Shown here: positions 5,291 through 61,689 of the stretch, piece after piece
How the letters are laid out: every line of letters begins with the position of its first letter
Position numbering within the stretch: the stretch's first letter is position 1
Assembly (NCBI GenBank): GCA_963753285.1
Contig: CAVWBT010000010.1
Span: forward strand, 240,481 to 304,480
Source: an uncultured bacterium
GTDB lineage: Bacteria > Actinomycetota > Acidimicrobiia > Spongiisociales > ZC4RG35
Reading direction: 5' to 3'
DNA length: 64,000 nt
Notes under the pieces: model-generated
What the model saw: only the letters and a program-made list of their open reading frames with translations
What the model was told of the DNA's origin: nothing
The model's database searches: none
Program-made: the position numbers and the translations under genes

Positions 5291-6007
5291 ATGACGTCGG
5301 CCACCTCACCTGCGCATGTGCTCATCGTGGAAGACGACGAGGGCGTCCGCCGGTCGCTCGTTCTCGCTCTGCGCGACGAGGGCCACACCGTCGACTCGGC
5401 CGGCGACGCGACCTCAGGATTCGCATCCTTCTCGAAGCGGGTGCCCGACCTCGTGCTGATCGACATCATGCTCCCGGGGGAGAGTGGTCTCGACCTGTGC
5501 CGGCGGATCCGTCAGGTCAGTCAGGTGCCGATCATCATGGTCACCGCCAGAGACGATTCACACGACGTCGTGGCAGGGTTGGAGGCGGGTGCCGACGATT
5601 ATGTGACGAAGCCCTTCGTCTTCAAGGAACTGGCGGCGCGCATCAGGGCCCTGCTGCGCCGAGCGAGGGGATCGAGCGACACCGGGAGCACCATGCGCTT
5701 CGGAGGACTCGAGATCTCACGGAGTGAGGGGCGGGTGTCCCGGGACGGTGAGGACATCTCGCTCACCCGCACCGAATTCCTCCTCCTCTGCGAACTGGCA
5801 GGAAGCCCGCGCAGGGTCTTCTCCCGGGACCAGCTGCTCTCCAGCGTGTGGGGGTACGACTACTTCGGCGACGGCCGGGTCGTGGATGCCCATGTCCGCC
5901 GTCTGAGGAAGAAGCTCGAGCCTTCGCCGTCCGATCCGACGTACGTGCAGACGGTGCGCGGACTCGGATACAAGTTCGATCCCACCGGTGCCGATGCCGA
6001 GGGGTAG
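5291..6007 (+). CDS. mtrA: OmpR-family response regulator, MtrA-like
   Basis: HVLIVEDDEGVRRSL...LVLIDIMLPGESGLDLCRRIR...MVTARDD, then a winged helix (VRGLGYKF). It is followed by a kinase gene and an lpqB-like gene as in mtrAB-lpqB. ATG at 5291 chosen; the ORF opens at 5240. Confidence 0.8.
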   Translation: MTSATSPAHVLIVEDDEGVRRSLVLALRDEGHTVDSAGDATSGFASFSKRVPDLVLIDIMLPGESGLDLCRRIRQVSQVPIIMVTARDDSHDVVAGLEAGADDYVTKPFVFKELAARIRALLRRARGSSDTGSTMRFGGLEISRSEGRVSRDGEDISLTRTEFLLLCELAGSPRRVFSRDQLLSSVWGYDYFGDGRVVDAHVRRLRKKLEPSPSDPTYVQTVRGLGYKFDPTGADAEG

Positions 6008-7403
6008 CGCCGGCCTCCCGTTGCCAGCGCGACTCAGGTCGCGACTCGGGCTGAGGACGAAGATCATCATCCTGTTCGCTGCGATCGGGTTGATCCTCTC
6101 CTCACTGCTCGGAACGATCACCTACTTCGCGGCCCGCCAGCTGTTGCTCGACGACCGCGAAGCGATCGCCGTGGAGCAGGCCGCAGGCGACGGGCGGCTG
6201 GTGTTCACTGCGCTTCGCGGCGGTCAGGCCAATCCCGCCGAGGTTCTGGCGTCCCTGCGGCCGCCGACGAGGTCCACGCCGATGCTGCTGCGCGACGCCC
6301 AGTGGTTCGCGGCGTCGCTGCAGGTCCGCCCCGAGGACCTGCCGCATGCGTTGACGTCCATGGTCGAGGGCGGCACCCCGGCCCTTCAGCGGACGACCGT
6401 AAACGGAGTCCCCGTGCTCGTGATCGGGTTCCCGCTGCCCGACGACGCGGGCGCCTATCTCGAGGTCTTCTCGCTCGCTGACGTCAGAACCATCCTCTCG
6501 ACGTTGCAGCGGGTGCTGATCCTCGCCGGAGCGGTGGCGACCGTCGCAGGAGTGGTGCTCGGGGGCTGGATGGCGGGTCGCGTGTTGCGTCCGCTCCGAG
6601 AGGTCACGGAAGTGGCGAGCCGGATCGCCGAAGGCGAGCTCGACACACGTCTCGACGAGCAGCTCGATCGCGACCTGACGGTGCTCTCGGGAGCGTTCAA
6701 CCGCATGGCGGACACGCTGCAGGCCCGGATCGCCCGGGAGGCTCGCTTCGCCTCCGACGTGGCCCACGAGCTCCGGACCCCGATCACCAGCCTGGTGACG
6801 TCGCTGGCGGTGATCGAGGGGCGACGACCCGAGCTGTCCGAGCAGGGGAGAGAGGCGTTGGGAATCCTGTCCGACGACGTTCAGCGTTTGCAGCACACGG
6901 TGGCCGATCTCACCGAGATGGCGAAACACGATGCCGGGGTCGTCACGGCCGATCTCGAGCTGTATCCCGTCCCCGCCCTCATCGGTGGCATCCTGAACCG
7001 GCTTCACCGTCACGACATCAGGGCCGACTTCGATCAGGGCGCGTTGCGGGCGCTCATCCGCGCAGACGAGCGACGGCTCGAACGGATCATCGCGAATCTG
7101 ATCGAGAACGCCGATACCCACGGCGGCGGAGTGATGCGCCTTGCTGTCCGATCCGGGCAATCGGTCGTCACGATCGCGGTCGAAGACGAGGGGCCCGGAG
7201 TGCCGGAGGCGGAGCGGAGCCGGATCTTCGAACGCTTCTCACGAGGCTCGTCAACGTACCGGTCGGCGAGAGTGACGGGGAGCGGGCTCGGACTCTCGCT
7301 CGCCGCGGAGAACACCGCGCTCCAACGTGGCCGGATCTGGGTCGAGGACCGGCCGGGCGGCGGGGCCCGATTCGTTGTGGAGTTGGAGGCAGAGACCGCA
7401 TGA
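5988..7403 (+). CDS. mtrB: sensor histidine kinase, MtrB-like
   Basis: Has a TM helix, HAMP, the H-box SDVAHELRTPIT, and C-terminal G-boxes GSGLGLSLA. Overlaps the mtrA end and the lpqB start. Confidence 0.8.
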   Translation: MPMPRGSAGLPLPARLRSRLGLRTKIIILFAAIGLILSSLLGTITYFAARQLLLDDREAIAVEQAAGDGRLVFTALRGGQANPAEVLASLRPPTRSTPMLLRDAQWFAASLQVRPEDLPHALTSMVEGGTPALQRTTVNGVPVLVIGFPLPDDAGAYLEVFSLADVRTILSTLQRVLILAGAVATVAGVVLGGWMAGRVLRPLREVTEVASRIAEGELDTRLDEQLDRDLTVLSGAFNRMADTLQARIAREARFASDVAHELRTPITSLVTSLAVIEGRRPELSEQGREALGILSDDVQRLQHTVADLTEMAKHDAGVVTADLELYPVPALIGGILNRLHRHDIRADFDQGALRALIRADERRLERIIANLIENADTHGGGVMRLAVRSGQSVVTIAVEDEGPGVPEAERSRIFERFSRGSSTYRSARVTGSGLGLSLAAENTALQRGRIWVEDRPGGGARFVVELEAETA

Positions 7404-7942
7404 AGTCCCGATTGCTCGCGTTCGTTCTGGTATTGAGCGCATGTGGTATCCCGCTCGACTCCGAGCCCCGGCAGGTGCCGCTCGAACTCCCGGTCCCGGG
7501 CGGCTTCGAAGAAGCAATCGGCGTCGAATTGGAGTCCGTCAGGATCTTCCTCGTTCGAGACGATCAACTCGTCGGGGTCACTCGAAACGTCCGGGCGCCG
7601 GCGAGGCTGGTCGACGTGATCGAGGCGCTGGTGGCGGGGCCAACCGATGCCGAGGAGCGGTCCGGACTGCGGACGTCGATCCCCGCCGGCACCACGATGT
7701 CCGATGTACGGCAGCAGGGTCCGATCGCCGTCATCGACCTGAGTGCGGACTTCGCCGCCGTTGGTGGCGCCCAGGAGATCCTGGCGGTCGCCCAGTTCGT
7801 CCTCACGACCACCCAGGTCGAGGGGATCGAGTCGGTCAGCTTCGAGTTGCAGGGTGTCCGCACCGATGTACCGATCACGGACGGCGCCCTCTCGGTGGAG
7901 CCGGTCACCGCAGCCGATTACGCGGACCTGGTCGACCGTTGA
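7400..7942 (+). CDS. lpqB: LpqB-like lipoprotein (GerMN domain only, short form)
   Basis: Lipobox LVLSAC|G and a GerMN-like segment. Third gene of the conserved mtrA-mtrB-lpqB arrangement; ATG overlaps the mtrB stop (ATGA). At 180 aa it is much shorter than mycobacterial LpqB. Confidence 0.55.
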   Translation: MKSRLLAFVLVLSACGIPLDSEPRQVPLELPVPGGFEEAIGVELESVRIFLVRDDQLVGVTRNVRAPARLVDVIEALVAGPTDAEERSGLRTSIPAGTTMSDVRQQGPIAVIDLSADFAAVGGAQEILAVAQFVLTTTQVEGIESVSFELQGVRTDVPITDGALSVEPVTAADYADLVDR

Positions 7943-7966
7943 CCTGGTCTCCGTCCCGTTCGGCGG

Positions 7967-8194
7967 ATGTACGCTCTCGACATGGCCTATCGATGCGCGC
8001 ACTGTGGCAATCGGACGAGGTTCGATGTCGTCGACACTGTCCGCCGCAAGCGTTTCCACCACTACACCCTCGGCGGGGAGCTCGACGTGGAATCCGAGGA
8101 GATCCTCGAGCAGCAGATCGAGTCGATCACGTGTCGCTGGTGCGACCGTGCCGACGGCATCGAGGAGTACCGGATCGAGTCGTCTTCGACTTGA
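7967..8194 (+). CDS. small zinc-ribbon protein (CxxC...CxxC)
   Basis: 75 aa with CAHCGN and CRWCDR pairs. Confidence 0.4.
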   Translation: MYALDMAYRCAHCGNRTRFDVVDTVRRKRFHHYTLGGELDVESEEILEQQIESITCRWCDRADGIEEYRIESSST

Positions 8195-8228
8195 ATCCTC
8201 GATCACGCCCGATGTCACGGGTGCCTGG

Positions 8229-8780
8229 TCAGCTCTTGGGCGGCGTGTCCCAGTCGTGGACGTCCTTGCCTGCTTCGCGACTGAGGATGTCCAGTGCCGC
8301 CTTCGCTCCGTCACCGGCAGAGATGATCGCCTGGCTCCGCCCGGGTCGAGCGCTGCGTCCGATCACGTAGACCCGTGGCTCCGAGCTGCGGGCCTCGGTG
8401 TCGACGAGGATCGCACCTTCGTCCTCGTCGAGCCCGAGTGAGCGGGCGAGCTCGGGGTTCTTGCCTTCGGACAGGATCAGGTAATCGCCCTCAACCATCT
8501 CTCCAGATTCCAGGGTTGCAGTGACGCCATCGCGGTCTGCGGTGACCGCCGTGACCGTGGCCGCATCGATCGAGGCTCCGACCGCCGTCGCCTGTGAGCG
8601 AGCCCGCGCCTGGAAATCCGACCCGGAGATCTCTTCGATCCCGAGATAGTTGTGCAGGTAGGCGTAGTGCATCGCCGTCTCGTCCTTGCCGTACACGGTC
8701 ACATCGGTCCCGTTCTTGGCCAGGAACAGTGCGGCGCTGAGGCCTCCGGGGCCGTCTCCGATCACGATTGTGCGGGTCAT
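8229..8780 (-). CDS. FAD-dependent oxidoreductase (short thioredoxin-reductase-like)
   Basis: N-terminal dinucleotide-binding motif IVIGDGPGGLSAALFLAK, and a second GD motif near the C-terminus. Confidence 0.65.
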   Translation of the reverse strand: MTRTIVIGDGPGGLSAALFLAKNGTDVTVYGKDETAMHYAYLHNYLGIEEISGSDFQARARSQATAVGASIDAATVTAVTADRDGVTATLESGEMVEGDYLILSEGKNPELARSLGLDEDEGAILVDTEARSSEPRVYVIGRSARPGRSQAIISAGDGAKAALDILSREAGKDVHDWDTPPKS

Positions 8781-8834
8781 GTCTTCTCCTCGGGTGTTGT
8801 AGAAATGAAATCGGGCACGATGCGCTCGGCCGGG

Positions 8835-10046
8835 TCAACGGCTGCGCAGGGCGTTGCGAGCAGACTCGTGCGCCGCCGAGCGTATCCGTACTTCGCGCGG
8901 ATCGTCCACCAGATAGAACCCCATGCGGTTCATGGCGTAGCAGAACCCCATCCTGAGGTCGGGGTCGGCGAACCCCATCGAACCTCCTGCGCCGGGCGTT
9001 CCGAAGGCGGCGGGCGATCCAAAATCGAACCCGGGCCACGGCTTGCACATCCCGAGCGAGAACGCCGTGTCCATGTGGAGAACCTCGTCGTGTGGGCCTT
9101 CGGTCGGTGTCGTCGCTGGGACGGTGAGACTTGCCAGCGTTTCCTCGTCGATCCCGAGGCGGCGCCCGCCGGTTGCGAACTCGCCGTATGCGATGGCCAC
9201 GCTGCGCGACGTGCCGGTTCCGTTCGCTGCCGGTAGCTCGATGCGCCGCACATCCCGGTCGTTGTACCTGACGGGCATGCCCACGACCTTCGGGTTCGCA
9301 AAGGAACGCGCGGTGATCGACTTCGGGTTGAGGAACTTCCTCACGAAGGCGGTCGGGAGGGTGCGAATGTTCGCAATCATCTTGACCCGGTACCAGTCGC
9401 CCATGACTCGGGCAAGACGGTCTTCGGGGATGTCGTCGGGTAGACCGATGTGGAAGTCCAACCCCAGCGGCGCCGCGATTTCGTCGGCGAAGTAGCGGCC
9501 GACGGTGCGGTGCTTCGGATCGACCCGGCGGATCAACTCGGACTCGTACCACCCGAGCGTCACACCGTGGTAGCCGTGCCTCGTGCCAGGCTCCCACGCC
9601 GGGGCCTGTTTGCCGATCGCCGCTGCGACCGCGTCGGGGTCCCCGAGTGTCTCGAGATCCATCGGCTCGTCGATGGCGCACAGCCCTCCCTGGTGCGACA
9701 GCAGCGTCCGGACGGTCATCTCGGCCTTCCCGTTCGCCGCAAACTCCGGCCAGTACGCGGCAACCGGATCGTCGTAGGCGAAGAGTTGTCGCGAGTGAGC
9801 ATGGGCGACGGCGAGAGCCGACATGCCCTTCGTAGTGGAGAACATGTTGACGAGCGTGTCCCGCTGCCAGGCCAGTCCGGTTCTCGGGTTGGCGACGCCG
9901 GCCCAGAGATCCACGACGAGCTCGCCATCGACCACCACGGCGCAGGCCGCCCCGACTTCATGCCCATCGGCGAAGTTCTGCTCGAAGGCCTCCCGCACTC
10001 GCTCGAAGCCAGGCTCGGTGAAACCACCGATCGGTGTGTCGGTCAT
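8835..10046 (-). CDS. serine hydrolase, class C beta-lactamase / esterase family
   Basis: 403 aa with an S-x-x-K active-site motif (FSTTKGM) and a typical beta-lactamase-fold length. Confidence 0.8.
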   Translation of the reverse strand: MTDTPIGGFTEPGFERVREAFEQNFADGHEVGAACAVVVDGELVVDLWAGVANPRTGLAWQRDTLVNMFSTTKGMSALAVAHAHSRQLFAYDDPVAAYWPEFAANGKAEMTVRTLLSHQGGLCAIDEPMDLETLGDPDAVAAAIGKQAPAWEPGTRHGYHGVTLGWYESELIRRVDPKHRTVGRYFADEIAAPLGLDFHIGLPDDIPEDRLARVMGDWYRVKMIANIRTLPTAFVRKFLNPKSITARSFANPKVVGMPVRYNDRDVRRIELPAANGTGTSRSVAIAYGEFATGGRRLGIDEETLASLTVPATTPTEGPHDEVLHMDTAFSLGMCKPWPGFDFGSPAAFGTPGAGGSMGFADPDLRMGFCYAMNRMGFYLVDDPREVRIRSAAHESARNALRSR

Positions 10047-38781: not shown

Positions 38782-38796
38782 ACGAGAGGCGATCAC

Positions 38797-39453
38797 ATGA
38801 GGGTCCTGGTCGTCGAGGATGATCAGGCGCTGGCAGATGGCGTGGCGCGCGGTCTCCGGCGCAAGGGCCTGGCCGTCGACGTGGTCGGTGACGGCGACGA
38901 GGCGCTCTTCAAGACGTCGGTCACCAGTTACGACGTCGTCGTGCTGGATCGCGACCTGCCCGGGACGCACGGGGACGAAGTGGCGCGCGCGCTCGTCGCA
39001 CGAGACGACTCCCCGAGGATCATCATGCTCACCGCCGCCGGATCGCTCGACGAGCGCGTCGAGGGGCTGTCGATCGGGGCGGACGACTACCTGTCGAAGC
39101 CGTTCGCCATGGCCGAGCTGGAGGCCAGGGTCAGGGCGCTGGCCCGCAGACCCGGCGCTGCGGTCCAGCCGGTGCTCAGGTACGCCGACGTCGAACTGGA
39201 CCCGGGAGCGTTCCGGGCTTCGCGGGGAGAACGGGCCCTCCACCTCACCAAGAAGGAGTTCGGCGTGCTCGAAGCGCTCATGTCATCGCATCCGAGAGTC
39301 GTGTCCGCCGAGGAGCTCGTCGAGCGGGTGTGGGACGAGCATGCCGACCCGTTCACCAACGCCCCACGAATCACCATGGTCACGCTGCGGCGCAAGCTGG
39401 GTGACCCGCCGTTGATCGAGACCGTGACCGGTGTGGGGTATCGGCTCCTATGA
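38797..39453 (+). CDS. OmpR-family response regulator
   Basis: MRVLVVEDDQALADG...VVVLDRDLPG...LTAA..., winged helix GVGYRL. Confidence 0.9.
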   Translation: MRVLVVEDDQALADGVARGLRRKGLAVDVVGDGDEALFKTSVTSYDVVVLDRDLPGTHGDEVARALVARDDSPRIIMLTAAGSLDERVEGLSIGADDYLSKPFAMAELEARVRALARRPGAAVQPVLRYADVELDPGAFRASRGERALHLTKKEFGVLEALMSSHPRVVSAEELVERVWDEHADPFTNAPRITMVTLRRKLGDPPLIETVTGVGYRLL

Positions 39454-40652
39454 CCACGAGAACCTCCATTCGACGGCGGCTGGCGATCCTGTTCGGGGCA
39501 TCGTTCCTGGTCGCCGGCCTGATCCTCGTCGCCCTGAACTATTTCCTGGTCGACGCCGAGATCCGAGACCTCCCGCAGGGCGGCCGGCAGGCGTTCGCCG
39601 ACGAGTTCGGCCTCGACCCCGCAGGCTTTCCCGGCTTCGAAGGCATCGAGGGTCTCCCACCGGTGATCGGCGACATCGTCCTCGAGGACGGTCGAACCAT
39701 CCGAGAGGCAGCAGACAGTTTCGAACGCCGGCTGCGTCGGGATCTGCTCAACTCGATCCTCGTGCAGTCCCTGATCGCTTTGGGAATCGTGGCGGTGATC
39801 GCTGCGGTCGTGGGCTGGATCATGTCCCGGCGCGCACTGGATCCGGTCGCCGAGATCACGAGGACCGCCCGGAGCCTGACCGAATCGGATCTGTCGCAGC
39901 GGGTCGGCCTGCAGGGTCCGTCGGACGAGATCAAGGAACTCGCCGACACGTTCGACGAGATGATGGATCGTGTCGAACGGGGCTACACCAACCAGGCCAA
40001 CTTCGCCGCTTACGCCTCGCACGAGCTCCGCACCCCGCTCAGTGTGATGCGTGTGGAGGCGGACAACCTCCTCGAAGCGGGTGAGGCACCTCGGGAAGAG
40101 CTCGACCTCGCACGGACCGTGCTCAAGGAGGTGGATCGGAGCGAGCGGCTCATCTCTCAGCTGATGTCGATCACCCGGTCCCGTAGCGGCAGCCTCAATC
40201 CCGAACCGATCGACCTCGCCGAGATGGTCGGCGAGGTAGTGGCGGACGCCGTGATGCTGGCCGACGCCCACGGCATCCAGCTCGACCTGTCGCTCCGCGA
40301 CGCAGTCGTGGTCGCCGACCGTTCGTTGCTGCGTTCGCTGATCCAGAACCTCGTCGTCAACGGCATCGTCCACAATGTCGGAGGCGGAGAGGTGGTCGTC
40401 GAGGTGGGGAGTGTCGATGGTCACGCGATCTTGACCGTGGAGAACACCGGTGACGAGGTCGAAGGCGCAGAAGTCGAGCGCATGTATCGCCCGTTCGAGC
40501 GGATCGAACGAGACCGAACCGGCGGTGTGGGTCTCGGGCTGGCGGTGGTCGCGGCGATCGCCGAAACCCACCAGGCCTCGGTGACGGCCACGCCTCGCGT
40601 GGGTGGGGGCCTCGTGACGACCGTGCGATTCGCGCAGTCGAGCCCCGACTGA
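39450..40652 (+). CDS. sensor histidine kinase
   Basis: 2 TM, HAMP, H-box ASHELRTPLSV, G-boxes GGVGLGLAVV. Confidence 0.85.
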   Translation: MTTRTSIRRRLAILFGASFLVAGLILVALNYFLVDAEIRDLPQGGRQAFADEFGLDPAGFPGFEGIEGLPPVIGDIVLEDGRTIREAADSFERRLRRDLLNSILVQSLIALGIVAVIAAVVGWIMSRRALDPVAEITRTARSLTESDLSQRVGLQGPSDEIKELADTFDEMMDRVERGYTNQANFAAYASHELRTPLSVMRVEADNLLEAGEAPREELDLARTVLKEVDRSERLISQLMSITRSRSGSLNPEPIDLAEMVGEVVADAVMLADAHGIQLDLSLRDAVVVADRSLLRSLIQNLVVNGIVHNVGGGEVVVEVGSVDGHAILTVENTGDEVEGAEVERMYRPFERIERDRTGGVGLGLAVVAAIAETHQASVTATPRVGGGLVTTVRFAQSSPD

Positions 40653-41874: not shown

Positions 41875-42578
41875 GGGGGACGATCCCCCTGAACCCCCCT
41901 GATGGCATGTCCGCCGTCGGGTTGCACGGCCCGCAGCCAGCATCCCGGGTCTGTGTTGGTCTGGGGGACGATCCCCTTGAACCCCCCTGATGGCATGTCC
42001 GCCGTCGGGTTGCACGGCCCGCAGCCAGTATCCCGGGTCTGTGTTGGTCTGGGGGACGATCCCCTTGAACCCCCCTGATGGCATGTCCGCCGTCGGGTTG
42101 CACGGCCCGCAGCCAGTATCCCGGGTCTGTGTTGGTCTGGGGGACGATCCCCTTGAACCCCCCTGATGGCATGTCCGCCGTCGGGTTGCACGGCCCGCAG
42201 CCAGTATCCCGGGTCTGTGTTGGTCTGGGGGACGATCCCCTTGAACCCCCCTGATGGCATGTCCGCCGTCGGGTTGCACGGCCCGCAGCCAGTATCCCGG
42301 GTCTGTGTTGGTCTGGGGGACGATCCCCTTGAACCCCCCTGATGGCATGTCCGCCGTCGGGTTGCACGGCCCGCAGCCAGTATCCCGGGTCTGTGTTGGT
42401 CTGGGGGACGATCCCCTTGAACCCCCCTGATGGCATGTCCGCCGTCGGGTTGCACGGCCCGCAGCCAGTATCCCGGGTCTGTGTTGGTCTGGGGGACGAT
42501 CCCCTTGAACCCCCCTGATGGCATGTCCGCCGTCGGGTTGCACGGCCCGCAGCCAGCATCCCGGGTCTGTGTCGATGT
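41875..42578. repeat. tandem repeat array, 8 x 88 bp
   Basis: Units start at 41875, 41963, 42051, 42139, 42227, 42315, 42403 and 42491. They are near-identical; the first and last units are slightly diverged. The unit begins GGGGGACGATCCCC (a hairpin). There are no variable spacers. The period is not a multiple of 3. Confidence 0.9.
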
Positions 42579-45286: not shown

Positions 45287-46432
45287 ATGGTCAGTCAACG
45301 CCTCGAGCCGTTCGGGTCGACGATCTTCACCGAGATCTCGGCGCTCTCGCGTCAACACGGCGCGACCGACCTCGGCCAGGGCTATCCGACGTTCGAAGGC
45401 CCCGAGTCCGTCAAGCAGGCCGCCATCGAGGGCTTGCGCAGCGGGTGGAACCAGTATCCGCCGATGATGGGGATGACCGAGCTCCGCACCGCCGTGGCGG
45501 ACCGCTGGCGCAAGGACACGGGTCTTCTCGCCGACCCGGACAGAGAGATCACGGTCACCTCCGGCGCGACCGAGGCATTGGCGGCCACTTTCATCGGGAC
45601 GTTCGATCCCGGCGACGAGGTGATCCTCATCGAGCCCTACTACGACGCCTATCCGGTGGGCTGTGCGCTCTCTGGAGCCGTTCCGCGGTACGTGACGCTG
45701 CACACCCCCGAGTTCCGGCTCGATCCCGAGGCGCTCGAGTCGGTCGTCTCGGAGCGGACCCGGGCGATCCTGATCAACACTCCGCACAACCCCACCGGGA
45801 GGGTGTTCGATCGGACCGAGCTCGAAGCGGTCGCAGATCTCTGCCGTCGCCACGACATGATCGCCATCACCGACGAGGTGTACGAGCGGATGGTCTACGA
45901 CGTCGAACACGTCCGGCTCGCGACCCTGGAGGGCATGGCAGAGCGCACCATCACGATCTCGTCGATCGGCAAGTCGTTCTCGTTCACCGGATGGAAGACC
46001 GGCTGGGCGATCGCCCCACCCGAACACACGGCCGGGATCCGAGCTGCACACCAGTTCCTCACCTTCACGGTGCCGAATGCGATGCAGTACGGGTCGGCGG
46101 CCGCGCTCCGGATCGACGACTCGTACTACGCCGAGTTGACCGATCTGTACCGGTCGAAGCGGGACCGGCTCGTCGCAGGTCTCCGATCGATCGGACTCGA
46201 GGTCTACGAGCCACAGGGCACCTACTTCGTGCTCGCCGACCATCGCCCATTCGGGTTCGCTGACGACGTCTCGTTCGTCCAGCATCTCATCACCGAGGTC
46301 GGGGTCGCCGCCATCCCGCCCTCGGCGTTCTACACGAACTCCGACGAGGGCTCTCGATTGGTCCGGTTCGCCTTCTGCAAAGACGACCGGATCATCGATG
46401 AGGCGCTCGAGAAGCTCGCAGCGATGAAGTGA
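45287..46432 (+). CDS. PLP-dependent aminotransferase (class I/II)
   Basis: PLP-lysine context SIGKSFSFTGWKTGW and fold I length. Confidence 0.85.
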   Translation: MVSQRLEPFGSTIFTEISALSRQHGATDLGQGYPTFEGPESVKQAAIEGLRSGWNQYPPMMGMTELRTAVADRWRKDTGLLADPDREITVTSGATEALAATFIGTFDPGDEVILIEPYYDAYPVGCALSGAVPRYVTLHTPEFRLDPEALESVVSERTRAILINTPHNPTGRVFDRTELEAVADLCRRHDMIAITDEVYERMVYDVEHVRLATLEGMAERTITISSIGKSFSFTGWKTGWAIAPPEHTAGIRAAHQFLTFTVPNAMQYGSAAALRIDDSYYAELTDLYRSKRDRLVAGLRSIGLEVYEPQGTYFVLADHRPFGFADDVSFVQHLITEVGVAAIPPSAFYTNSDEGSRLVRFAFCKDDRIIDEALEKLAAMK

Positions 46433-46533
46433 GGGGTAGGTCCTGACGTCGCACGGAGGCGTTGTGTAGGGTCGCCGGTGTATCACGAGGAGCCGACGAT
46501 GCTCCGCGATGACGTCCGCAACGAGGGGAACCC

Positions 46534-47664
46534 ATGGTCATAGGAAGGCAATACCCGCACAACCACGAAGACCTCGTCACGGTCGGCGGGAAGGAGGTCG
46601 TCTTCGATTCGAGGGGTTTCGAGTACATCGACGACGAGGTGATCGTCGCCGCAGACGATGTCGATGCGGCACTCCGCGTGCTCGCCAAGCGATTCGACGC
46701 ACGCGTCGCAGAGCAGGATGGCGCCACCGACGTGTCGATCATCGAGCTCGCAGCCAACGGGAAACTCCTAGAGATCGTTGCCAGGCTCGAGGCGGCGGGG
46801 ATACCGGCATCACCGAATCACGTGCTCCAGACGACTTGGCACTCCACGGTCATCGGCACCGGACGACCGAAGCCGGCTCGGCCCAACGCCTGGCTCACGA
46901 GTCAACTGAAGAAGAAGCCGAGCGCCCGCCGCCGTCCGGTAGTGGCCGTGATCGACACCGGAATCGTCAAGCACTCGCGATTGGTCAACGTGCGAGGCGT
47001 CGGTCAGGCCACGGATCGCCAGACGGACCCGGCTGCGAAGTCGTTCGGGCACGGCACGTTCGTCGCAGGTCTGATCGCCGCAGAGTGCCCTGACGCGGAC
47101 ATCAAGGTGTTCCGCGCCGAGTTCGGTTCCACCGATGACAACTGGTTCGGCCTGATCACCGACGCCGACCTCGCAGCGTCGATCGATTCCGCGCTGGCCC
47201 GGTTGAAGGTCATCGACGTGATGAATCTGTCGATCGGCGGCTACACGCACGACAACCGCCCATTGTTCGCCACGAGTCGGAGCGTCGCCCGGGCGATCCG
47301 GCGCAACGTCACCGTTGTAGCGGGTGCCGGGAACGACGGGCGCCGCGACCCCTTCTACCCCGCTGCAGAACCCGGCGTGATCGGCGTCGGCTCGATCGAC
47401 GCGTCCGGCAAACGGTCGTGCTTCTCGAACATCGGTCCATGGGTCGACGTCGAAGCCGTGGGCGAGGACGTCGTGTCGACGTTCCCGGAGACCGAGGTTC
47501 ACACCATTGCACTCCCCGAGGGCGGCTCCGCCGGGTGTCCCCCGGAACCCGCGTCGCCGGAACAGACCGTCGACTTCACCGGAGGATTCGCGCGGTGGTC
47601 CGGCACGTCCTTCTCGGCGGCACGAGTATCTGGTGCGATCGCTGCCACCCGAATCGGACGCTGA
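46534..47664 (+). CDS. S8-family subtilisin-like serine peptidase, no signal peptide, ~140-aa N-terminal domain
   Basis: Catalytic triad contexts VAVIDTGI (Asp), HGTFVAG (His) and GTSFSAA (Ser). The N-terminus is non-hydrophobic. Confidence 0.85.
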   Translation: MVIGRQYPHNHEDLVTVGGKEVVFDSRGFEYIDDEVIVAADDVDAALRVLAKRFDARVAEQDGATDVSIIELAANGKLLEIVARLEAAGIPASPNHVLQTTWHSTVIGTGRPKPARPNAWLTSQLKKKPSARRRPVVAVIDTGIVKHSRLVNVRGVGQATDRQTDPAAKSFGHGTFVAGLIAAECPDADIKVFRAEFGSTDDNWFGLITDADLAASIDSALARLKVIDVMNLSIGGYTHDNRPLFATSRSVARAIRRNVTVVAGAGNDGRRDPFYPAAEPGVIGVGSIDASGKRSCFSNIGPWVDVEAVGEDVVSTFPETEVHTIALPEGGSAGCPPEPASPEQTVDFTGGFARWSGTSFSAARVSGAIAATRIGR

Positions 47665-50221
47665 AGACTCCGGGCTGAGGCTGGCGGGGGAGGCCTGGGA
47701 CGCGGCCACCTCCGATCCCGACTCCGCCCGTGAGTTGGCGGCTTGGGTGCTGGCGCACAGCGGCTCCCCTCGGGCGCGGGCCCTTGCCGCGCGTGCACTC
47801 GGTGTGGCACTGCGAACGCTGCGTGACCTCCCAGGCGCCCTCACCGCCTTCAAAGAGGCCATCGAGATCGCAGATGGGGACGACCTGCCCGCCGAGCGCG
47901 CATTCGCTCAGGTGCTCCTCGCGGGCGCCGAATTCCTGGCCGGCCGACCCGACCGCTCGCTGGAGCTGCTCGACGCCGCAGTCCCGGACCTCGAGGGGGA
48001 ACAACTGGTGCTGGCGCACATGCAGACGGGCATCGTGCGGGGGCTGTCCGGCGACTTCGCGAACGGTCTCGCGGCGCTGGACTCGATCAGCGATCAGGTG
48101 GGGTCGCTGCCGCTCATGCGGCAGGGGATGTATCACACGAATCGGGCGGCTTGCCTCCTCGGGATCAACCGGGCGACCGAGGCGATCGAGGTCTTCGAGC
48201 AGGCGCTGACGCTCTACGAGCGGGTGGGAGAGCCCCACCTCTCGTCGAACGCGCTCCACAATCTCGCTCGCGCCTACGCCGCTTCAGGTCATGTCGTCGG
48301 TGCGTTGCGTTGCTTCGAACGGGTCGATGCGCTCGGCATCGGGCCGCCGTCCGGTGTCGACCTCGTCGACCGGGCCACGGTGTTCCTTTCGGCCAGCCTC
48401 CTGCAGGAGGCCGAGGACTCGGCGCGACGGGCCAGACAGGCGGCAGCGCGGGCTCCGATCGAGGAGTGGCACCCGGTTGCTTCGATGATCCTCGCCCAGG
48501 CGCTCGAAGCCCTCGGCGACGTCGCTGGCGCCGTCGAGCCGGCGCAGCATGCGATGGAGTTGTTCGAACAGCAGGACCGCCCGAACCTCCGCGATCTCGC
48601 CGAGGCCGTCGAACTGCGCTGCCTCGCTGTGGTCCACGGCGGCGACGGTGTCGCAGAGCGGGCCCGTGCAACCGCAGCCCGGCTGGCCGAGTGGGGTGCT
48701 TCCGCCGAAGCGATCACACTCCTGCTCGGCGTCGTACGACGTTCGATCGATGAACGGTTGATCCGGGCGCAGCTCGAGGCGGCAATGGACATTCGGACCG
48801 CCGGCCTCGGACCCGACGTCCTCCGGGCGGAGGCATTCGCTCGGCTCGCCGTACTCGATGGCGACATCGACAGCATGGAAACCATGGTCGCCGAAGCCTT
48901 CGAGTCGCTCGACGAATGGCGACGGACGATCGGCTCGACGGAACTGCAGGCTGGCGTCGCCCGCCAGGGCGTGCATCTCGCCGATGTCGCGATCGGGGTT
49001 GCGATCGGGCGGCGAGACGCAGCGTCGGCGCTCGAAGCAGTCGAACGCCCTCGGGCGCTGTCGCTGGTCTCGACGAAGGATCGCCCCCGAAACGAGGAAC
49101 TCGACCGTCTGCTCGTCGAGTACCGGGCGCTCGCAGGGCGGTTGGAGACGGGCGGCCACCAAGCCGACAGAAGCCGTCTCGAACGAAGGATCAGGGAGCT
49201 CGGCAGGCTGGCGGACCACACGACGGAGACATCTCGACAGCCGGCAGTCGACACGGCCGTCGAGCGTCTGGTAGGTCGGCGATTGGTGGAGTTCATCGAT
49301 CATCGTGGCTCGATCTTCGCGATCACGGTCTCGGGCGGTGCTCCGATGGAGATGGTCGAGGTCGCCTCGGTCGCAGATGTCCGCTCCGAGATCGACTCAT
49401 TGCGCAGCGCAGTAGCTCGATTGGCGAGTCCGCAGATCTCTCCTGCCGCACGTGACGCGTTCGCCACCGTGCTCGATGCGTCGGCTGGATTCGTCTCCGA
49501 CTGGCTGTTCGGCTCGGTCGACCTCGGAGACGCTTCGTCGGTCCTCGTGGTCCCGTCCCGGTCGCTCGGGTCGCTCCCGTGGTCCGCGCTCCCAGCGCTG
49601 TCCGGCCGTGCGTTCACCGTTGCGCCGTCCTTTCGCCTGTGGGCAGCGATGGATTCGCGAGCGCCGTCAGACTCCGGGCGTGTCGTGGCAGTCGGGCTCG
49701 AGGACCCCCCGTTGGCCTCGATGGAAGCCCGCGCCGTTGCCGAGCTGCGTGGTGGGACGGCCATCGTCGGGGACGAAGCGACCGTGGACGTCGTCGTCCG
49801 CGAGATCGACGGTGCCGGCGTCGCCCATCTGGCCTGCCACGGGGTCTTCCGCGGTGACAACCCCCTGATGTCCTCGCTCTCCATGGCGGATGGGCCGATC
49901 ACGGTCTACGACCTCGAACACCTGCGCGATCCGCCGAGGACGCTCGTGCTCTCCGCGTGTGAGGTCGCGCAGTCCCAGCGCCTCGCCGGAGATGCGCTTC
50001 TCGGCATGACGGCCTCACTGATGGCGGCGGGTACACGGTCGATCATCGCCGCGACCACGGTGGTATCGGACCAGGCGGCGCCCGAGTTCATGGAAGAGTG
50101 GCACCGGAGCCATTCGGAGGGAGCGTCACCGGCCGAGGCATTGGCGCATGCCCGATCTTCGATGTCCGGCGATCCTCGCGCGCGGGCGGTTGCGGCCTCG
50201 TTCCTGTGTCTCGGGGTCTGA
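47642..50221 (+). CDS. TPR-repeat + CHAT-domain (caspase-like) protein
   Basis: An ~860-aa helical-repeat N-terminus, then a C-terminal CHAT core with the His/Cys dyad HLACHG ... LVLSACEVAQ. GTG at 47642 overlaps the S8 gene end; the listed ORF opens at 47507. Confidence 0.75.
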   Translation: MPPESDAEDSGLRLAGEAWDAATSDPDSARELAAWVLAHSGSPRARALAARALGVALRTLRDLPGALTAFKEAIEIADGDDLPAERAFAQVLLAGAEFLAGRPDRSLELLDAAVPDLEGEQLVLAHMQTGIVRGLSGDFANGLAALDSISDQVGSLPLMRQGMYHTNRAACLLGINRATEAIEVFEQALTLYERVGEPHLSSNALHNLARAYAASGHVVGALRCFERVDALGIGPPSGVDLVDRATVFLSASLLQEAEDSARRARQAAARAPIEEWHPVASMILAQALEALGDVAGAVEPAQHAMELFEQQDRPNLRDLAEAVELRCLAVVHGGDGVAERARATAARLAEWGASAEAITLLLGVVRRSIDERLIRAQLEAAMDIRTAGLGPDVLRAEAFARLAVLDGDIDSMETMVAEAFESLDEWRRTIGSTELQAGVARQGVHLADVAIGVAIGRRDAASALEAVERPRALSLVSTKDRPRNEELDRLLVEYRALAGRLETGGHQADRSRLERRIRELGRLADHTTETSRQPAVDTAVERLVGRRLVEFIDHRGSIFAITVSGGAPMEMVEVASVADVRSEIDSLRSAVARLASPQISPAARDAFATVLDASAGFVSDWLFGSVDLGDASSVLVVPSRSLGSLPWSALPALSGRAFTVAPSFRLWAAMDSRAPSDSGRVVAVGLEDPPLASMEARAVAELRGGTAIVGDEATVDVVVREIDGAGVAHLACHGVFRGDNPLMSSLSMADGPITVYDLEHLRDPPRTLVLSACEVAQSQRLAGDALLGMTASLMAAGTRSIIAATTVVSDQAAPEFMEEWHRSHSEGASPAEALAHARSSMSGDPRARAVAASFLCLGV

Positions 50222-50317
50222 ACCGAAACGCGCGTATCAGATGCCGACCGACCGGCTCTGTTGATCATGTCATCCGTCGCCAGGGACGCACGCCACCGAT
50301 CTCTAGGATCGTGCCGT

Positions 50318-50863
50318 ATGTCGGAACGATCGGTCGCGCTGTTGCTCGAGGCTGCCTCGGAGGGAGATCAGGCAGCCTGGAACGCGCTCGTCGACCGGTA
50401 CGGCCGGCTCGTGTGGTCGGTGGTGCGCGGTTTCCGGCTGGACGACGCCGCTGCCCACGACGTCTTTCAGACGGTGTGGCTCCGACTGGTCGAGCACGTC
50501 GATCGGATCCGTGAGCCGGAACGACTGCCGGGATGGCTGTCGATGACCGCCAAGAACGAGTGCATCAGGGTGCTGAAGCGGCAGAAGCGGCAGATCCCGA
50601 GCGACTTCGAATACGACGTCGCCGATCCCACTGCCCGGGACTTCGCCGACCCGCTCATCGATCTCGAATCCATCGAGGTGGCGATCGACGCATTCGAACA
50701 ACTCTCACCCGAACATCAGCAGTTGATGCGGCTGCTGTGCGCGGACCCGCCACTGGACTACGAGACGATCGCATCGATAATCGACCGTCCGATCGGATCG
50801 ATCGGGCCGACGAGGGCGAGATGCATCGCCAAGCTCAGGGCCATCATCGGAGAGGAATCGTGA
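50318..50863 (+). CDS. ECF (sigma-70 family) RNA polymerase sigma factor
   Basis: Region 2 (LVWSVVRGFRLDDAAAHDVFQTVWLRLVEH) and region 4 (YETIASIIDRPIGSIGPTRARCIAKLR). Confidence 0.8.
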   Translation: MSERSVALLLEAASEGDQAAWNALVDRYGRLVWSVVRGFRLDDAAAHDVFQTVWLRLVEHVDRIREPERLPGWLSMTAKNECIRVLKRQKRQIPSDFEYDVADPTARDFADPLIDLESIEVAIDAFEQLSPEHQQLMRLLCADPPLDYETIASIIDRPIGSIGPTRARCIAKLRAIIGEES

Positions 50864-51309
50864 ACGAGCACATCACAGACGACGAGCTCGTCGAAGCAAT
50901 CAAGGCAGGGCTGGAACTCAACGACCCGGTGCCGACCTCCGCGCTCGAAGCGGCCAAAGCCGCCTTCACGTGGCGGACCATCGACGCCGAGCTGGCGGAG
51001 CTGGTGTACGACTCGGCAGAGTCCGGTCTCGTCGGGGTCAGGGGGGAGGCGGCGCGTCAGGTGACCTTCCGCAGCCCCGGAGTCGAGATCGAGGTCATGG
51101 TCGTCGACGAGCGAGCCCGGAGAATCGTCGGACAGCTCGTCCCACCGCAGCAGGCGACCGTCGAGCTGCACACGTCGGCAGGGGTCCGGGAACAGGGCTC
51201 GGACTCGCTCGGCAGGTTCGGCTTCGAAGGAATCGCACCCGGGCCGGTGAAGCTCTCGGTGCAGACTGCCGACGGCGGTACTGTCGTCACCGAATGGACG
51301 ATCATCTGA
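50860..51309 (+). CDS. hypothetical protein co-transcribed with ECF sigma (GTGA overlap), possible anti-sigma/partner
   Basis: 149 aa with no TM or Zn motif. An N-terminal helix, then a probable beta-sandwich. Confidence 0.45.
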   Translation: MNEHITDDELVEAIKAGLELNDPVPTSALEAAKAAFTWRTIDAELAELVYDSAESGLVGVRGEAARQVTFRSPGVEIEVMVVDERARRIVGQLVPPQQATVELHTSAGVREQGSDSLGRFGFEGIAPGPVKLSVQTADGGTVVTEWTII

Positions 51310-52527: not shown

Positions 52528-53511
52528 CTACGGGATGAGCAGGACCTTGCCGGTCGTGTTTCGGGATTCGAGGGCGGTGTGGGCGGCGGCCGCTTCCGAG
52601 ACCGGGTAGGTGGCGCCGATCCGCACGTCGAGGTGGCCCGATTCCATCCAGGCGAAGAGATCGGCCGCCCTCGATCTGAGCTCCTCGGGGCCGGAGATGT
52701 AGTCGAACAGCGTCGGGCGGGTGAGGTAGATCGAGCCGTTCGTCATCAGGTCGAGCGGCGAGACCGGGTCGACCGGCCCCGAAGCGTTGCCGAACGTGAC
52801 CATCATCCCCCTCGGTCGCAGCACCGTGATGCCCTTGGCGAACGTGGTCTTCCCGACTCCGTCATAGACGACGTCGATCGGCCGATGTCCGGCGATCTCG
52901 GTGATGGCGTCGGCGAAATCGACGTCCCGATACTTGATGACGTGGTCTGCGCCCGCCGCCTCGGAGAGCTCGGCCTTCTCGTCGCTGCCGACGGTCGTGA
53001 ACACCTCGGCACCCTTGAGTTTGGCGATCTGGGTCAGCAAGAGACCCACGCCACCTGCTCCGGCATGGATGAGCGCGGTCTGGCCGGGTTGCAGGGGGAA
53101 CGTGTCGGTGGCGAGATAGTGGGCGGTCAGGCCCTGGAGCATGACAGCAGCTGCCGTGTCCAGCGGCACGCTCTCGGGAACGTGGACCAGGCTGTCCTGT
53201 GCTGCGGCTTTCCGCTCGGCGTAGCTCCCGATGGAACTGGTCCAGGCGACCCGATCGCCGACCGAGAAGCCCTCGACCTCCGAGCCGACGGCGGTGATCG
53301 TCCCCGAGCCCTCGAGGCCGGGCGTGAACGGCAGCTCCATCGGGTAGAGCCCGCCGCGGTGATAGGTGTCGATGAAGTTCACGCCGGCTGCGGCGACCTT
53401 CACGACCACGTGCGACGGCTCGAGCTCGGGCTCTGGGAGTTCGCCGTATTCGAGAACCTCCGGTCCGCCTGTGGACCTGACCGAGATCCCACGGTTGGGT
53501 GTGCTGCTCAT
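52528..53511 (-). CDS. qor: NADPH:quinone oxidoreductase (zinc-type MDR family)
   Basis: Internal ATG at 53511 with GGAGGA RBS. Nucleotide-binding motif AGAGGVGL and an MDR length of 327 aa. Confidence 0.85.
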   Translation of the reverse strand: MSSTPNRGISVRSTGGPEVLEYGELPEPELEPSHVVVKVAAAGVNFIDTYHRGGLYPMELPFTPGLEGSGTITAVGSEVEGFSVGDRVAWTSSIGSYAERKAAAQDSLVHVPESVPLDTAAAVMLQGLTAHYLATDTFPLQPGQTALIHAGAGGVGLLLTQIAKLKGAEVFTTVGSDEKAELSEAAGADHVIKYRDVDFADAITEIAGHRPIDVVYDGVGKTTFAKGITVLRPRGMMVTFGNASGPVDPVSPLDLMTNGSIYLTRPTLFDYISGPEELRSRAADLFAWMESGHLDVRIGATYPVSEAAAAHTALESRNTTGKVLLIP

Positions 53512-53951
53512 GTCTCCTCCGGTTCCTCGACGGTCCATCCTCGCCTCGTGAGCTCTTCTGCGAGCGCGTGATCGGAGAACCCGAGGAGGTCCGGCGCCCA
53601 CTCCCGGTGCGTCGGGATCTCGTCCATCAGGAGCTCCTCGACCGGATCGCGGAGTGTCCGCGCCCACGCCCGTCCCCTCGCCTGACCGTGCTCGCTCAGC
53701 GTCGAATCGGGGTTCACCACGAAGACCCGCGCCTCGGATTGGGGGTTCGCCCGCGATCCGCGTTCTCCGTACACCAGCACCACCGAACCGGCCGGGACGT
53801 CCTGGATCCCGCCGGTTGCGATGAAGTCGCCGATGAACGCCCACCCCGACGACTTCGTGGGGTCCACCGAGTGCACCACCTTCGCCCAGTTCTTGTGTCG
53901 TTCGTCCCCGACCTGGGGGATCTCGACCGCGACGACCGGTGTCTCGTTCAT
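53508..53951 (-). CDS. hypothetical protein
   Basis: 147 aa, coupled to qor (ATGA). No recognisable motif. Confidence 0.4.
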   Translation of the reverse strand: MNETPVVAVEIPQVGDERHKNWAKVVHSVDPTKSSGWAFIGDFIATGGIQDVPAGSVVLVYGERGSRANPQSEARVFVVNPDSTLSEHGQARGRAWARTLRDPVEELLMDEIPTHREWAPDLLGFSDHALAEELTRRGWTVEEPEET

Positions 53952-60787: not shown

Positions 60788-61053
60788 GCAGCTGTGGATC
60801 CGGCCTCCGGTCGCTCGGGTTGGACGAAAGGAGCCTCGTTCTTTCCCGGACGGCGCGACGCGACGCCAAACCCGGGCCCGAACAGAGTCGGAGGAGGGGT
60901 AAGACACGGCAAAACGACCGTGTTGACCGGGTCCCGGCGGGTCGATACGTTCCGCACCACAACGCCCGAGGTGCTCGGTCGTCGATCCTCCGCTCGGGGA
61001 AGTGCGGTCCGATCGTTCGACATGGGTTCCTCGGGCGTTGGCAGTGTCGACCC

Positions 61054-61689
61054 GGGGGACGATCCCCCTGGAACCCCCTGATGGCACACCCGCCCCGCAT
61101 GTCACGCGGCCCGCGGCCAGCAACCCGGGTCTGTGACATGATGGGGGCGATGTCGACCTGGGGGACGATCCCCCTGGAACCCCCTGATGGCACACCCGCC
61201 CCGCATGTCACGCGGCCCGCGGCCAGCAACCCGGGTCTGTGACATGATGGGGGCGATGTCGACCTGGGGGACGATCCCCCTGGAACCCCCTGATGGCACA
61301 CCCGCCCCGCATGTCACACGGCCCGCGGCCAGCAACCCGGGTCTGTGACATGATGGGGGCGATGTCGACCTGGGGGACGATCCCCCTGGAACCCCCTGAT
61401 GGCACACCCGCCCCGCATGTCACGCGGCCCGCGGCCGGCAACCCGGGTCTGTGACATGATGGGGGCGATGTCGACCTGGGGGACGATCCCCCTGGAACCC
61501 CCTGATGGCACACCCGCCCCGCATGTCACGCGGCCCGCGGCCAGCAACCCGGGTCTGTGACATGATGGGGGCGATGTCGACCTGGGGGACGATCCCCCTG
61601 GAACCCCCTGATGGCACACCCGCCCCGCATGTCACGCGGCCCGCGGCCAGCATCCCGGGTCTGGGCTCGCGCAGCACCGTGAGACGTGA
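61054..61689. repeat. tandem repeat array, 6 x 106 bp, related to the 88-bp family
   Basis: Units start at 61054, 61160, 61266, 61372, 61478 and 61584. They share the modules GGGGGACGATCCCCCTGGAACCCCCTGATGGCA and CGGCCCGCGGCCAGCAACCCGGGTCTGTG with the 88-bp unit. The intervening segments differ. Confidence 0.9.

Follow-up and report, generated by a model that had tools for sequence, protein, structure and literature searches.

Gene content and conservation of the locus

At positions 46534–51309 of a 64,000-bp stretch of DNA from an uncultured bacterium of the class Acidimicrobiia (GenBank assembly GCA_963753285.1, contig CAVWBT010000010.1, positions 240,481 to 304,480; G+C content of 66%), hereafter the window, four genes on the plus strand encode a subtilase of peptidase family S8, a caspase-like CHAT protease with tetratricopeptide repeats (TPR), a sigma factor with extracytoplasmic function (ECF) and a small protein of 149 aa (Table 1). 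Open reading frames and domain matches agree with the original prediction made from this sequence, which had described four co-directional genes with S8/CHAT and sigma/partner overlaps. The S8 gene starts with an ATG preceded by the Shine-Dalgarno sequence GAGGGG and overlaps with its 3' end the CHAT start by 32 nt. Likewise, the stop codon of the sigma gene and the start codon of the small gene overlap in GTGA, with the Shine-Dalgarno sequence GAGGAA lying inside the sigma 3' end. Across all four proteins, the maximal 19-residue Kyte-Doolittle hydropathy is 1.31, in line with the absence of signal peptides and transmembrane helices, and judged by this hydropathy all four proteins are cytoplasmic.

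Table 1. Features of the cassette and their coordinates in the window
Feature	Position	Strand	Details
S8 subtilase	46534-47664	+	376 aa; Peptidase_S8 2e-25, Fervidolysin_NPro-like 2.3e-07
TPR-CHAT caspase-like protease	47633(GTG)-50221	+	862 aa; CHAT 1.8e-31, TPR_12 3.3e-14 among several TPR families
ECF sigma factor	50318-50863	+	181 aa; Sigma70_r2 2e-15, TIGR02937 2.6e-19
Small partner protein, candidate soluble anti-sigma factor	50860-51309	+	149 aa; weak CarboxypepD_reg match
ECF-type promoter-like site GTATCA-N16-CTC	46480..46504	+	54 bp 5' of S8 ATG
ECF-type promoter-like site GTATCA-N16-CTC	50234..50258	+	84 bp 5' of sigma ATG; presumed autoregulatory
TAGGAT, TAnnnT -10-like box	50304..50309	+	8 nt before sigma ATG; read by eye

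Very probably, the cassette belongs to the ECF54 module as a member from the Acidimicrobiia; ECF54 is a sigma factor group reportedly also credited to Huang et al. in 2015. The group is described as Actinobacterial, with carboxypeptidase-regulatory-like, subtilase and CHAT proteins as neighbours and no recognisable anti-sigma factor (PMC8999054, section 3.3; PMC7826278), and the ECF re-classification lists neither a putative anti-sigma factor nor another clear regulator for it (Casas-Pastor et al., 2021, PMC7826278). The assignment is made because taxonomy, architecture and diagnostic gene context agree. The sigma factor consists only of sigma2 and sigma4 regions without sigma3 (TIGR02937, sigma70-ECF, over residues 20–175 of 181), it is of Actinobacterial origin, it has CarboxypepD_reg, subtilase and CHAT neighbours, and no anti-sigma domain is found. 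At E ≤ 1e-15, the sigma factor has 4682 homologues, and all named ones among the best 120 listed belong to Acidimicrobiia. The gene association itself is not new, being already catalogued as ECF54, and the framing of the cassette as an unrecognised module in the original prediction has to be given up, as it matches this published context. Compared to ECF54, there is no difference in kind; the window shows an unusual order with all genes co-directional and a C-terminally short S8 protein, and the nearby 4Fe-4S protein given for ECF54 by Casas-Pastor et al. was not seen at the window cassette.

A full-text search of the ECF54 literature led to the works cited above only and yielded no experimental study, promoter motif or anti-sigma candidate. 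ECF54 is among the ECF groups without a known regulator, and the control of sigma factors lacking a recognisable anti-sigma factor is an open question in bacterial signalling. New are the putative GTATCA-N16-CTC promoter, an anti-sigma candidate with a candidate cleavage segment, an asymmetry between the CHAT and S8 genes and the link to Streptomyces orthologues, by which a catalogued gene association is turned into specific testable predictions; the orthologues in Streptomyces coelicolor are genetically tractable.

The TPR-CHAT protein is composed of all-helical repeats at residues ~7–525, followed by the CHAT domain at ~545–862. In the AlphaFold model (pLDDT 88.6, pTM 0.81), about 27 helices of TPR-like repeats precede CHAT. 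The original prediction had described the His/Cys dyad as intact, which alignment corroborates as canonical: of 76 homologues aligned, every one has His736 (HLACHG), and 75 have Cys776 (LSAC). Best Foldseek matches of the model are separase, Csx29 and DdvA, with E-values of 1e-15 to 1e-11 at 12–15% identity (for Csx29 of Craspase, 8eey_B, E = 2e-14 at ~14% identity). By sequence profile, the sole CHAT match in the PDB is the 991-aa chain 8rot_B (E = 2e-10), belonging to the DdvA entry 8rot. TPR-CHAT proteins of such architecture, for example separase and Csx29, are signal-gated, site-specific proteases and not bulk degraders.

The S8 protein shows the Asp-His-Ser triad and the oxyanion Asn in canonical subtilase order (D141/H173/N267/S359; in an alignment of 71 S8 sequences from related loci, each is kept in 66 to 71), and its best PDB sequence matches are subtilisin BPN'. 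As the original prediction had proposed, it is a subtilase without signal peptide and with an extra N-terminal domain, since a hydrophobic N-terminus is missing and a pro-domain-like region resembling the Fervidolysin N-pro family extends over residues ~22–87. Only 18 aa follow the catalytic Ser in the window protein, compared to ~46–48 aa in most homologues. This short tail is common to the closest relative, in locus L007 (63% identical), and is not found in the others, which makes it a property of the clade instead of an error in the sequence. A frameshift running into the CHAT reading frame was likewise ruled out, as the CHAT frame upstream of its start encodes Arg/Pro-rich junk and the L007 protein is equally short. 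The short 3' end of S8 (47610-47664), which overlaps the CHAT start, may have arisen through the inversion by which S8 came to point in the same direction as CHAT.

For assessing conservation, one genome per species was scanned, giving relatives in 333 genomes, from which 80 loci were fetched; neighbourhood counts refer to those 64 Acidimicrobiia species loci in which the upstream DNA extends over 6.5 kb or more. Sigma and small gene are neighbours in all 64, a CHAT gene is present in 58 and an S8 gene, sometimes two, in 53. The flanks vary among loci (rpoC/rpsL, a K+ channel, an aminotransferase), and finding the neighbourhood in 53 of 64 species-level loci despite these different flanks is indicative of more than chance. 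Gene orientation is likewise variable: S8(-) | CHAT(+)-sigma-small is the layout found most often, and the all-co-directional order of the window recurs at one other locus only (1/64). Identity to the window proteins amounts to ~53–55% for the sigma factor and the small protein and to ~31–34% for CHAT and S8. Within Acidimicrobiia, the distribution is near-universal and apparently vertical, beside housekeeping genes.

All four genes also occur together in Streptomyces coelicolor and Polymorphospora rubra, arranged as CHAT(+) | S8-sigma-small(-), with clear orthology at identities of 38% for the small protein (E = 4e-20), 39–46% for the sigma factor, ~30% for S8 and 31–42% for CHAT. Hence, the four-gene neighbourhood, whose conservation the original prediction had left to be checked, is kept in two classes of Actinomycetota. 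Near the P. rubra module, a two-component pair is encoded as well as an HtrA-like protease. The S. coelicolor cluster appears to be SCO6994-6997, judging from its position beside idh and from the naming of SCO6995 as intracellular serine protease and of SCO6996 as sigma factor. SCO6995, taken here as the S8 orthologue, has been reported as an AdpA-dependent intracellular protease, its mRNA being dependent on AdpA (PMC2936110).

Promoter motif, sigma factor starts and the 149-aa partner

Upstream of the sigma gene, a GTAT(C/T)(A/T) element is present in 79 of the 80 loci, followed at a fixed distance by (C)TC(T) in 73 of these 79, which gives the consensus GTATCA-N16-CTC located 70–120 bp before the sigma start codon across loci. 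The exact motif occurs twice in the 64-kb window (0.21 copies expected), both times intergenic, 5' of S8 and 5' of sigma. Among the related loci, it is sense-oriented in front of the sigma gene in 73 of 79 cases and in front of S8 in 24 of 67 (antisense in five), compared to only two of 69 CHAT genes. In the common divergent layout, the motif is placed between the S8 and CHAT genes and oriented towards S8, and in S. coelicolor the same motif precedes the S8-sigma-small operon. From this placement, we read GTATCA-N16-CTC as the probable promoter recognised by the sigma factor itself, which would thus be autoregulated, S8 as a presumed conserved regulon member and at least partly an output of sigma, and CHAT as being usually expressed independently of a sigma-type promoter. 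A motif found 5' of S8 and rarely 5' of CHAT is in line with CHAT being constitutive and upstream in the pathway, and with S8 being induced. In the window, the CHAT gene lies behind S8 and would consequently be co-induced.

In 56 of 74 loci, an in-frame ATG, GTG or TTG that is open into the sigma reading frame is found 3–17 nt, usually 8 nt, past the CTC of the -10 element. In the window, this alternative start is ATG 50267, 8 nt past CTC, from which a possible isoform of 198 aa would be translated. In the upstream regions inspected by eye, a TAnnnT hexamer is located at the same position before the shorter sigma start. Taken together, the sequence pattern suggests two sigma promoters and two isoforms, of 198 aa from ATG 50267 and of 181 aa from ATG 50318, and the TAGGAT box may be a housekeeping promoter for a leaderless or near-leaderless mRNA of the short sigma. 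This putative two-promoter/two-isoform arrangement is reminiscent of SigR/SigH, where SigR' of S. coelicolor is an unstable isoform (PMC7826278).

The small gene lies directly 3' of the ECF sigma gene and is translationally coupled to it, as is the case for class I anti-sigma genes; among 79 loci, the sigma stop codon shares 4 nt with the start codon of the small gene in 55 and 1 nt in nine (64/79 together). In addition, a crude comparison over 60 loci shows that the sigma factor and the small protein vary together in their similarity scores (rho 0.50, p = 5e-5) and that neither does so with CHAT or S8. The pair is also retained where the proteases are missing. These findings favour a sigma/anti-sigma-like pair, in which the small protein would bind the sigma factor.

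The AlphaFold model of the small protein (pLDDT 70.9 overall, ~90 in the sandwich) comprises helices 7–20 and 26–52, a low-confidence segment at ~43–64 and a beta-sandwich at 67–148, and CarboxypepD_reg matches were obtained for 40 of 40 family members. Within the family, this segment ranks with the best-conserved parts (WRTIDAELAEL..DS...GVRG..R.LTF, with ELAEL.(F/Y)DS...GVRG as conserved linker), and this holds even over 141 representatives with a median identity of 42%. High conservation together with low confidence of the standalone model fits a segment that folds on a partner or serves as protease recognition or cleavage site. The family includes 845 close homologues, the named ones nearly all from Acidimicrobiia or other metagenome-assembled genomes of Actinomycetota. 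An exhaustive profile search retrieved 2020 representatives at E ≤ 1e-10; among the best 150 of these, all except one repeat protein of 2424 aa have a length of 116–214 aa, and no fusion of the small protein to a sigma factor was found.

The candidate anti-sigma factor does not bear a class I, II or III anti-sigma signature. Neither zf-HC2 nor RskA nor another anti-sigma Pfam domain was detected in the four cassette proteins or, at E ≤ 1, in 40 small homologues. Its two N-terminal helices differ from the four-helix domain in the signature of class I (ASDI) anti-sigma factors, and an HxxxCxxC zinc motif is absent from a family without any conserved Cys or His.

Possible control of the sigma factor by the cassette proteases

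As a tentative model, which is the one we prefer, TPR-CHAT, with S8, would cleave the small anti-sigma-like protein and thereby free the autoregulated sigma factor. Translational coupling would provide the sigma factor and the 149-aa protein in 1:1 amounts, and the latter, as a soluble anti-sigma factor of a new type, would hold sigma inactive via its N-terminal helical hairpin. A constitutive cytoplasmic TPR-CHAT would act as sensor, with the TPR array binding the cue and CHAT then cutting the small protein, probably in the flexible invariant linker between hairpin and beta-sandwich; in an alternative cleavage route, CHAT might activate the pro-domain-bearing S8 subtilase. The freed sigma factor would transcribe from GTATCA-N16-CTC its own operon and S8, in the window the S8-CHAT operon, resulting in a self-amplifying response that newly made small protein would reset. 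Who cleaves whom, at which site and upon which signal is what we infer in this scheme. The protease-gated sigma switch advanced in the original prediction is, in its general idea, in line with this evidence and with the published proposal for ECF54; it stays plausible and unproven, and S8 has to be regarded as at least partly an output of sigma.

Several observations weigh against this model. In six of the 64 loci (~9%), the sigma-small pair is found with unrelated neighbours and without a protease within 8 kb. Conversely, Jiangella possesses a divergent S8|CHAT pair with neither sigma nor small gene nearby (locus L088, S8 at 5667-6890 on the minus and CHAT at 7001-9550 on the plus strand), from which it follows that there is at least one further substrate or function of the proteases. 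The S8 protein of the window is devoid of ~30 C-terminal residues found in most homologues, making its activity here uncertain. Moreover, the sigma-type promoter 5' of S8 is equally compatible with proteases that are outputs only, and the published ECF54 proposal differs from our model in assuming proteolysis of sigma itself.

Regulated anti-sigma proteolysis, known from DegS/RseP/ClpXP acting on RseA, from RsiW and from mycobacterial RseA with ClpC1P2, combines a co-transcribed pair, a signal-triggered protease and an autoregulated sigma factor. The logic proposed for the cassette is the same. In contrast to these systems, all of its components are soluble and cytoplasmic, and a clan CD caspase-like enzyme as well as a subtilase are encoded by the module.

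Craspase of type III-E (Cas7-11/gRAMP, Csx29, Csx30 and Csx31) resembles the cassette in having a TPR-CHAT protein with His/Cys dyad and an ECF sigma factor at the same locus; its protease cuts a sigma-binding inhibitor, and the sigma factor autoregulates the locus (PMC10028731). However, Craspase needs Cas7-11 and RNA, whereas Cas7-11, a CRISPR array or an RNA trigger were not found with the cassette in the partly annotated window. This agrees with the original prediction, which had described the locus as free of CRISPR-Cas, and no cas gene is among the neighbours annotated between 38.7 and 55 kb. Further differences to Craspase are the added S8 subtilase, the small protein of 149 aa with its beta-sandwich and a core-like distribution instead of a defence island. 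The comparison drawn in the original prediction consequently holds for the TPR-CHAT fold and the ECF sigma factor nearby and fails for Cas7-11, leaving an analogy of logic and fold only and not membership.

Like Csx29, DdvA is tied to the control of an ECF sigma factor (PMC10028731, PMC11506125), and for DdvA/DdvS of Myxococcus xanthus a signal-induced self-cleavage freeing the sigma factor has been proposed (PMC11506125). DdvA has the closest solved CHAT domain by sequence and, as in the cassette, combines TPR-CHAT with an ECF sigma factor. Unlike DdvA, which unites a zinc anti-sigma domain, a transmembrane helix and a periplasmic TPR-CHAT part in one protein, the TPR-CHAT protein of the cassette is separate, soluble and cytoplasmic. 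It has no anti-sigma Pfam domain such as a zinc finger and no transmembrane helix, its TPR helices start already at residue 7, and the candidate anti-sigma factor is the separate 149-aa protein.

Extending the preferred model, the cassette might represent a phylum-wide, CRISPR-independent counterpart of Craspase and DdvA. A TPR-CHAT sensor and a zymogen-like S8 would cleave a new class of soluble anti-sigma factors, made up of hairpin, invariant linker and transthyretin-like beta-sandwich, thereby setting ECF54 sigma factors free to act at GTATCA-N16-CTC promoters, and in some lineages the regulon may include a sigma-dependent small or antisense RNA. This wider claim is more doubtful than the cleavage model itself. 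If protease gating is true, caspase-like control of sigma factors would be an old housekeeping mechanism of Actinobacteria and not a speciality of CRISPR or defence.

Rather unlikely, in our view, is an explanation in which the proteases are only outputs. The small protein would be an anti-sigma factor that either responds to the cue on its own or is degraded by general proteases (such as Clp), and S8, in the window also CHAT, would be the main sigma regulon, executing stress or developmental remodelling or degradation. ECF sigma factors commonly have their main targets adjacent, and regulators and targets are indistinguishable from genomic context alone according to Casas-Pastor et al. (PMC7826278). 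The motif directly 5' of S8 in the window, at S8 genes elsewhere and in S. coelicolor, the reported AdpA-dependence of the presumed orthologue SCO6995 and the Jiangella pair without sigma would all suit proteases in such a role. Yet CHAT, while almost never preceded by the motif, is linked to sigma in 58 of 64 loci, which is easier to understand if it acts on the pathway. Besides, signal-gated and site-specific TPR-CHAT proteins would be unexpected executors of bulk degradation.

Less probable still is the published ECF54 proposal that an anti-sigma factor is missing altogether and that subtilase and/or CHAT hold the system in its off state through degradation of sigma, the small protein being an adaptor or regulator of this proteolysis. 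Tight translational coupling and sigma/small covariation speak for a stoichiometric partner and against an adaptor, and the linker between sigma2 and sigma4 is not conserved between Acidimicrobiia and Streptomyces. Furthermore, a sigma factor inducing its own destroyer S8 would amount to negative feedback only, which is possible and leaves a constitutive TPR-CHAT sensor unexplained. Corroborative of sigma degradation are the lack of a known anti-sigma domain detectable in the small protein and the plausible longer sigma isoform, recalling the unstable SigR' of S. coelicolor (PMC7826278).

Very improbable is a defence module, considered possible in the original prediction, in the form of an anti-phage or abortive infection system related to Craspase or to gasdermin-type protease systems and independent of CRISPR, with TPR-CHAT as sensor of a phage protein and sigma as inducer of defence genes. 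In its favour, the fold is like that of Csx29 and DdvA, both tied to defence-related ECF sigma factors (PMC10028731; PMC11506125), and CHAT and S8 evolve much faster than sigma and small protein, as immune sensors often do. However, the module keeps conserved chromosomal sites next to housekeeping genes (rpoC/rpsL, aminotransferase) in hundreds of species of a single class and in Streptomyces, a vertical, core-like distribution that is unlike patchy defence islands and argues against a mobile one, and the motif-bearing targets did not include any defence genes. PADLOC gave weak matches of S8 to its 'subtilase' and IetS models and none for CHAT, sigma and small protein, so that the cassette was dropped as a known defence system.

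Flanking genes and further motif sites

The cassette is preceded by a two-component pair, Dus, two transporters and an aminotransferase (45287-46432) and followed by a GFO/IDH/MocA oxidoreductase and a zinc-ADH. With housekeeping genes on both sides, the cassette therefore consists of exactly four genes. The two-component pair, an OmpR-type response regulator and a HAMP/HisKA histidine kinase, is encoded at 38782-40652, 6 kb 5' of the cassette. An Rfam scan of the window was without match.

Outside the sigma and S8 upstream regions, GTATCA-N16-CTC sites are located just 3' of S8(-) or CHAT(-) in related loci (L004 ~3297(-), L009 3212(-), L015 3200(-), L014 3497(-) and L021 3463(-)). They are followed by 100–250 nt with stem-like sequence and no convincing reading frame, and in several loci the extra motif points into the 3' end of a convergent aminotransferase gene homologous to window 45287-46432. 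These sites are candidates for a sigma-dependent small or antisense RNA, as judged from position and sequence; Rfam did not return any match on eight related loci, and in the window no extra 3'-end site of this kind was detected. In S. coelicolor, the start of a LuxR/AAA_16 regulator gene beside the CHAT gene bears a second GTATCA-N16-CTC site (L089, 12112(-)).

At 53508-53951 (-), the window encodes a 147-aa protein without Pfam match. Its homologues in L015, L016, L018, L036, L038, L059 and L073 (48–74% identical) have the motif upstream. This protein was dropped as a regulon member, as the window copy is not preceded by the motif.

Two near-perfect, non-coding tandem arrays are present in the window, at 41875-42572 (period 88, 7.9 copies, 99% matches) and 61045-61663 (period 106, 5.8 copies, 98% matches). 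Being devoid of unique spacers, they were ruled out as CRISPR. Both arrays have a common core with the palindrome GGGGGACGATCCCC and ...GGCCCGC.GCCAG.A.CCCGGGTCTGTG.

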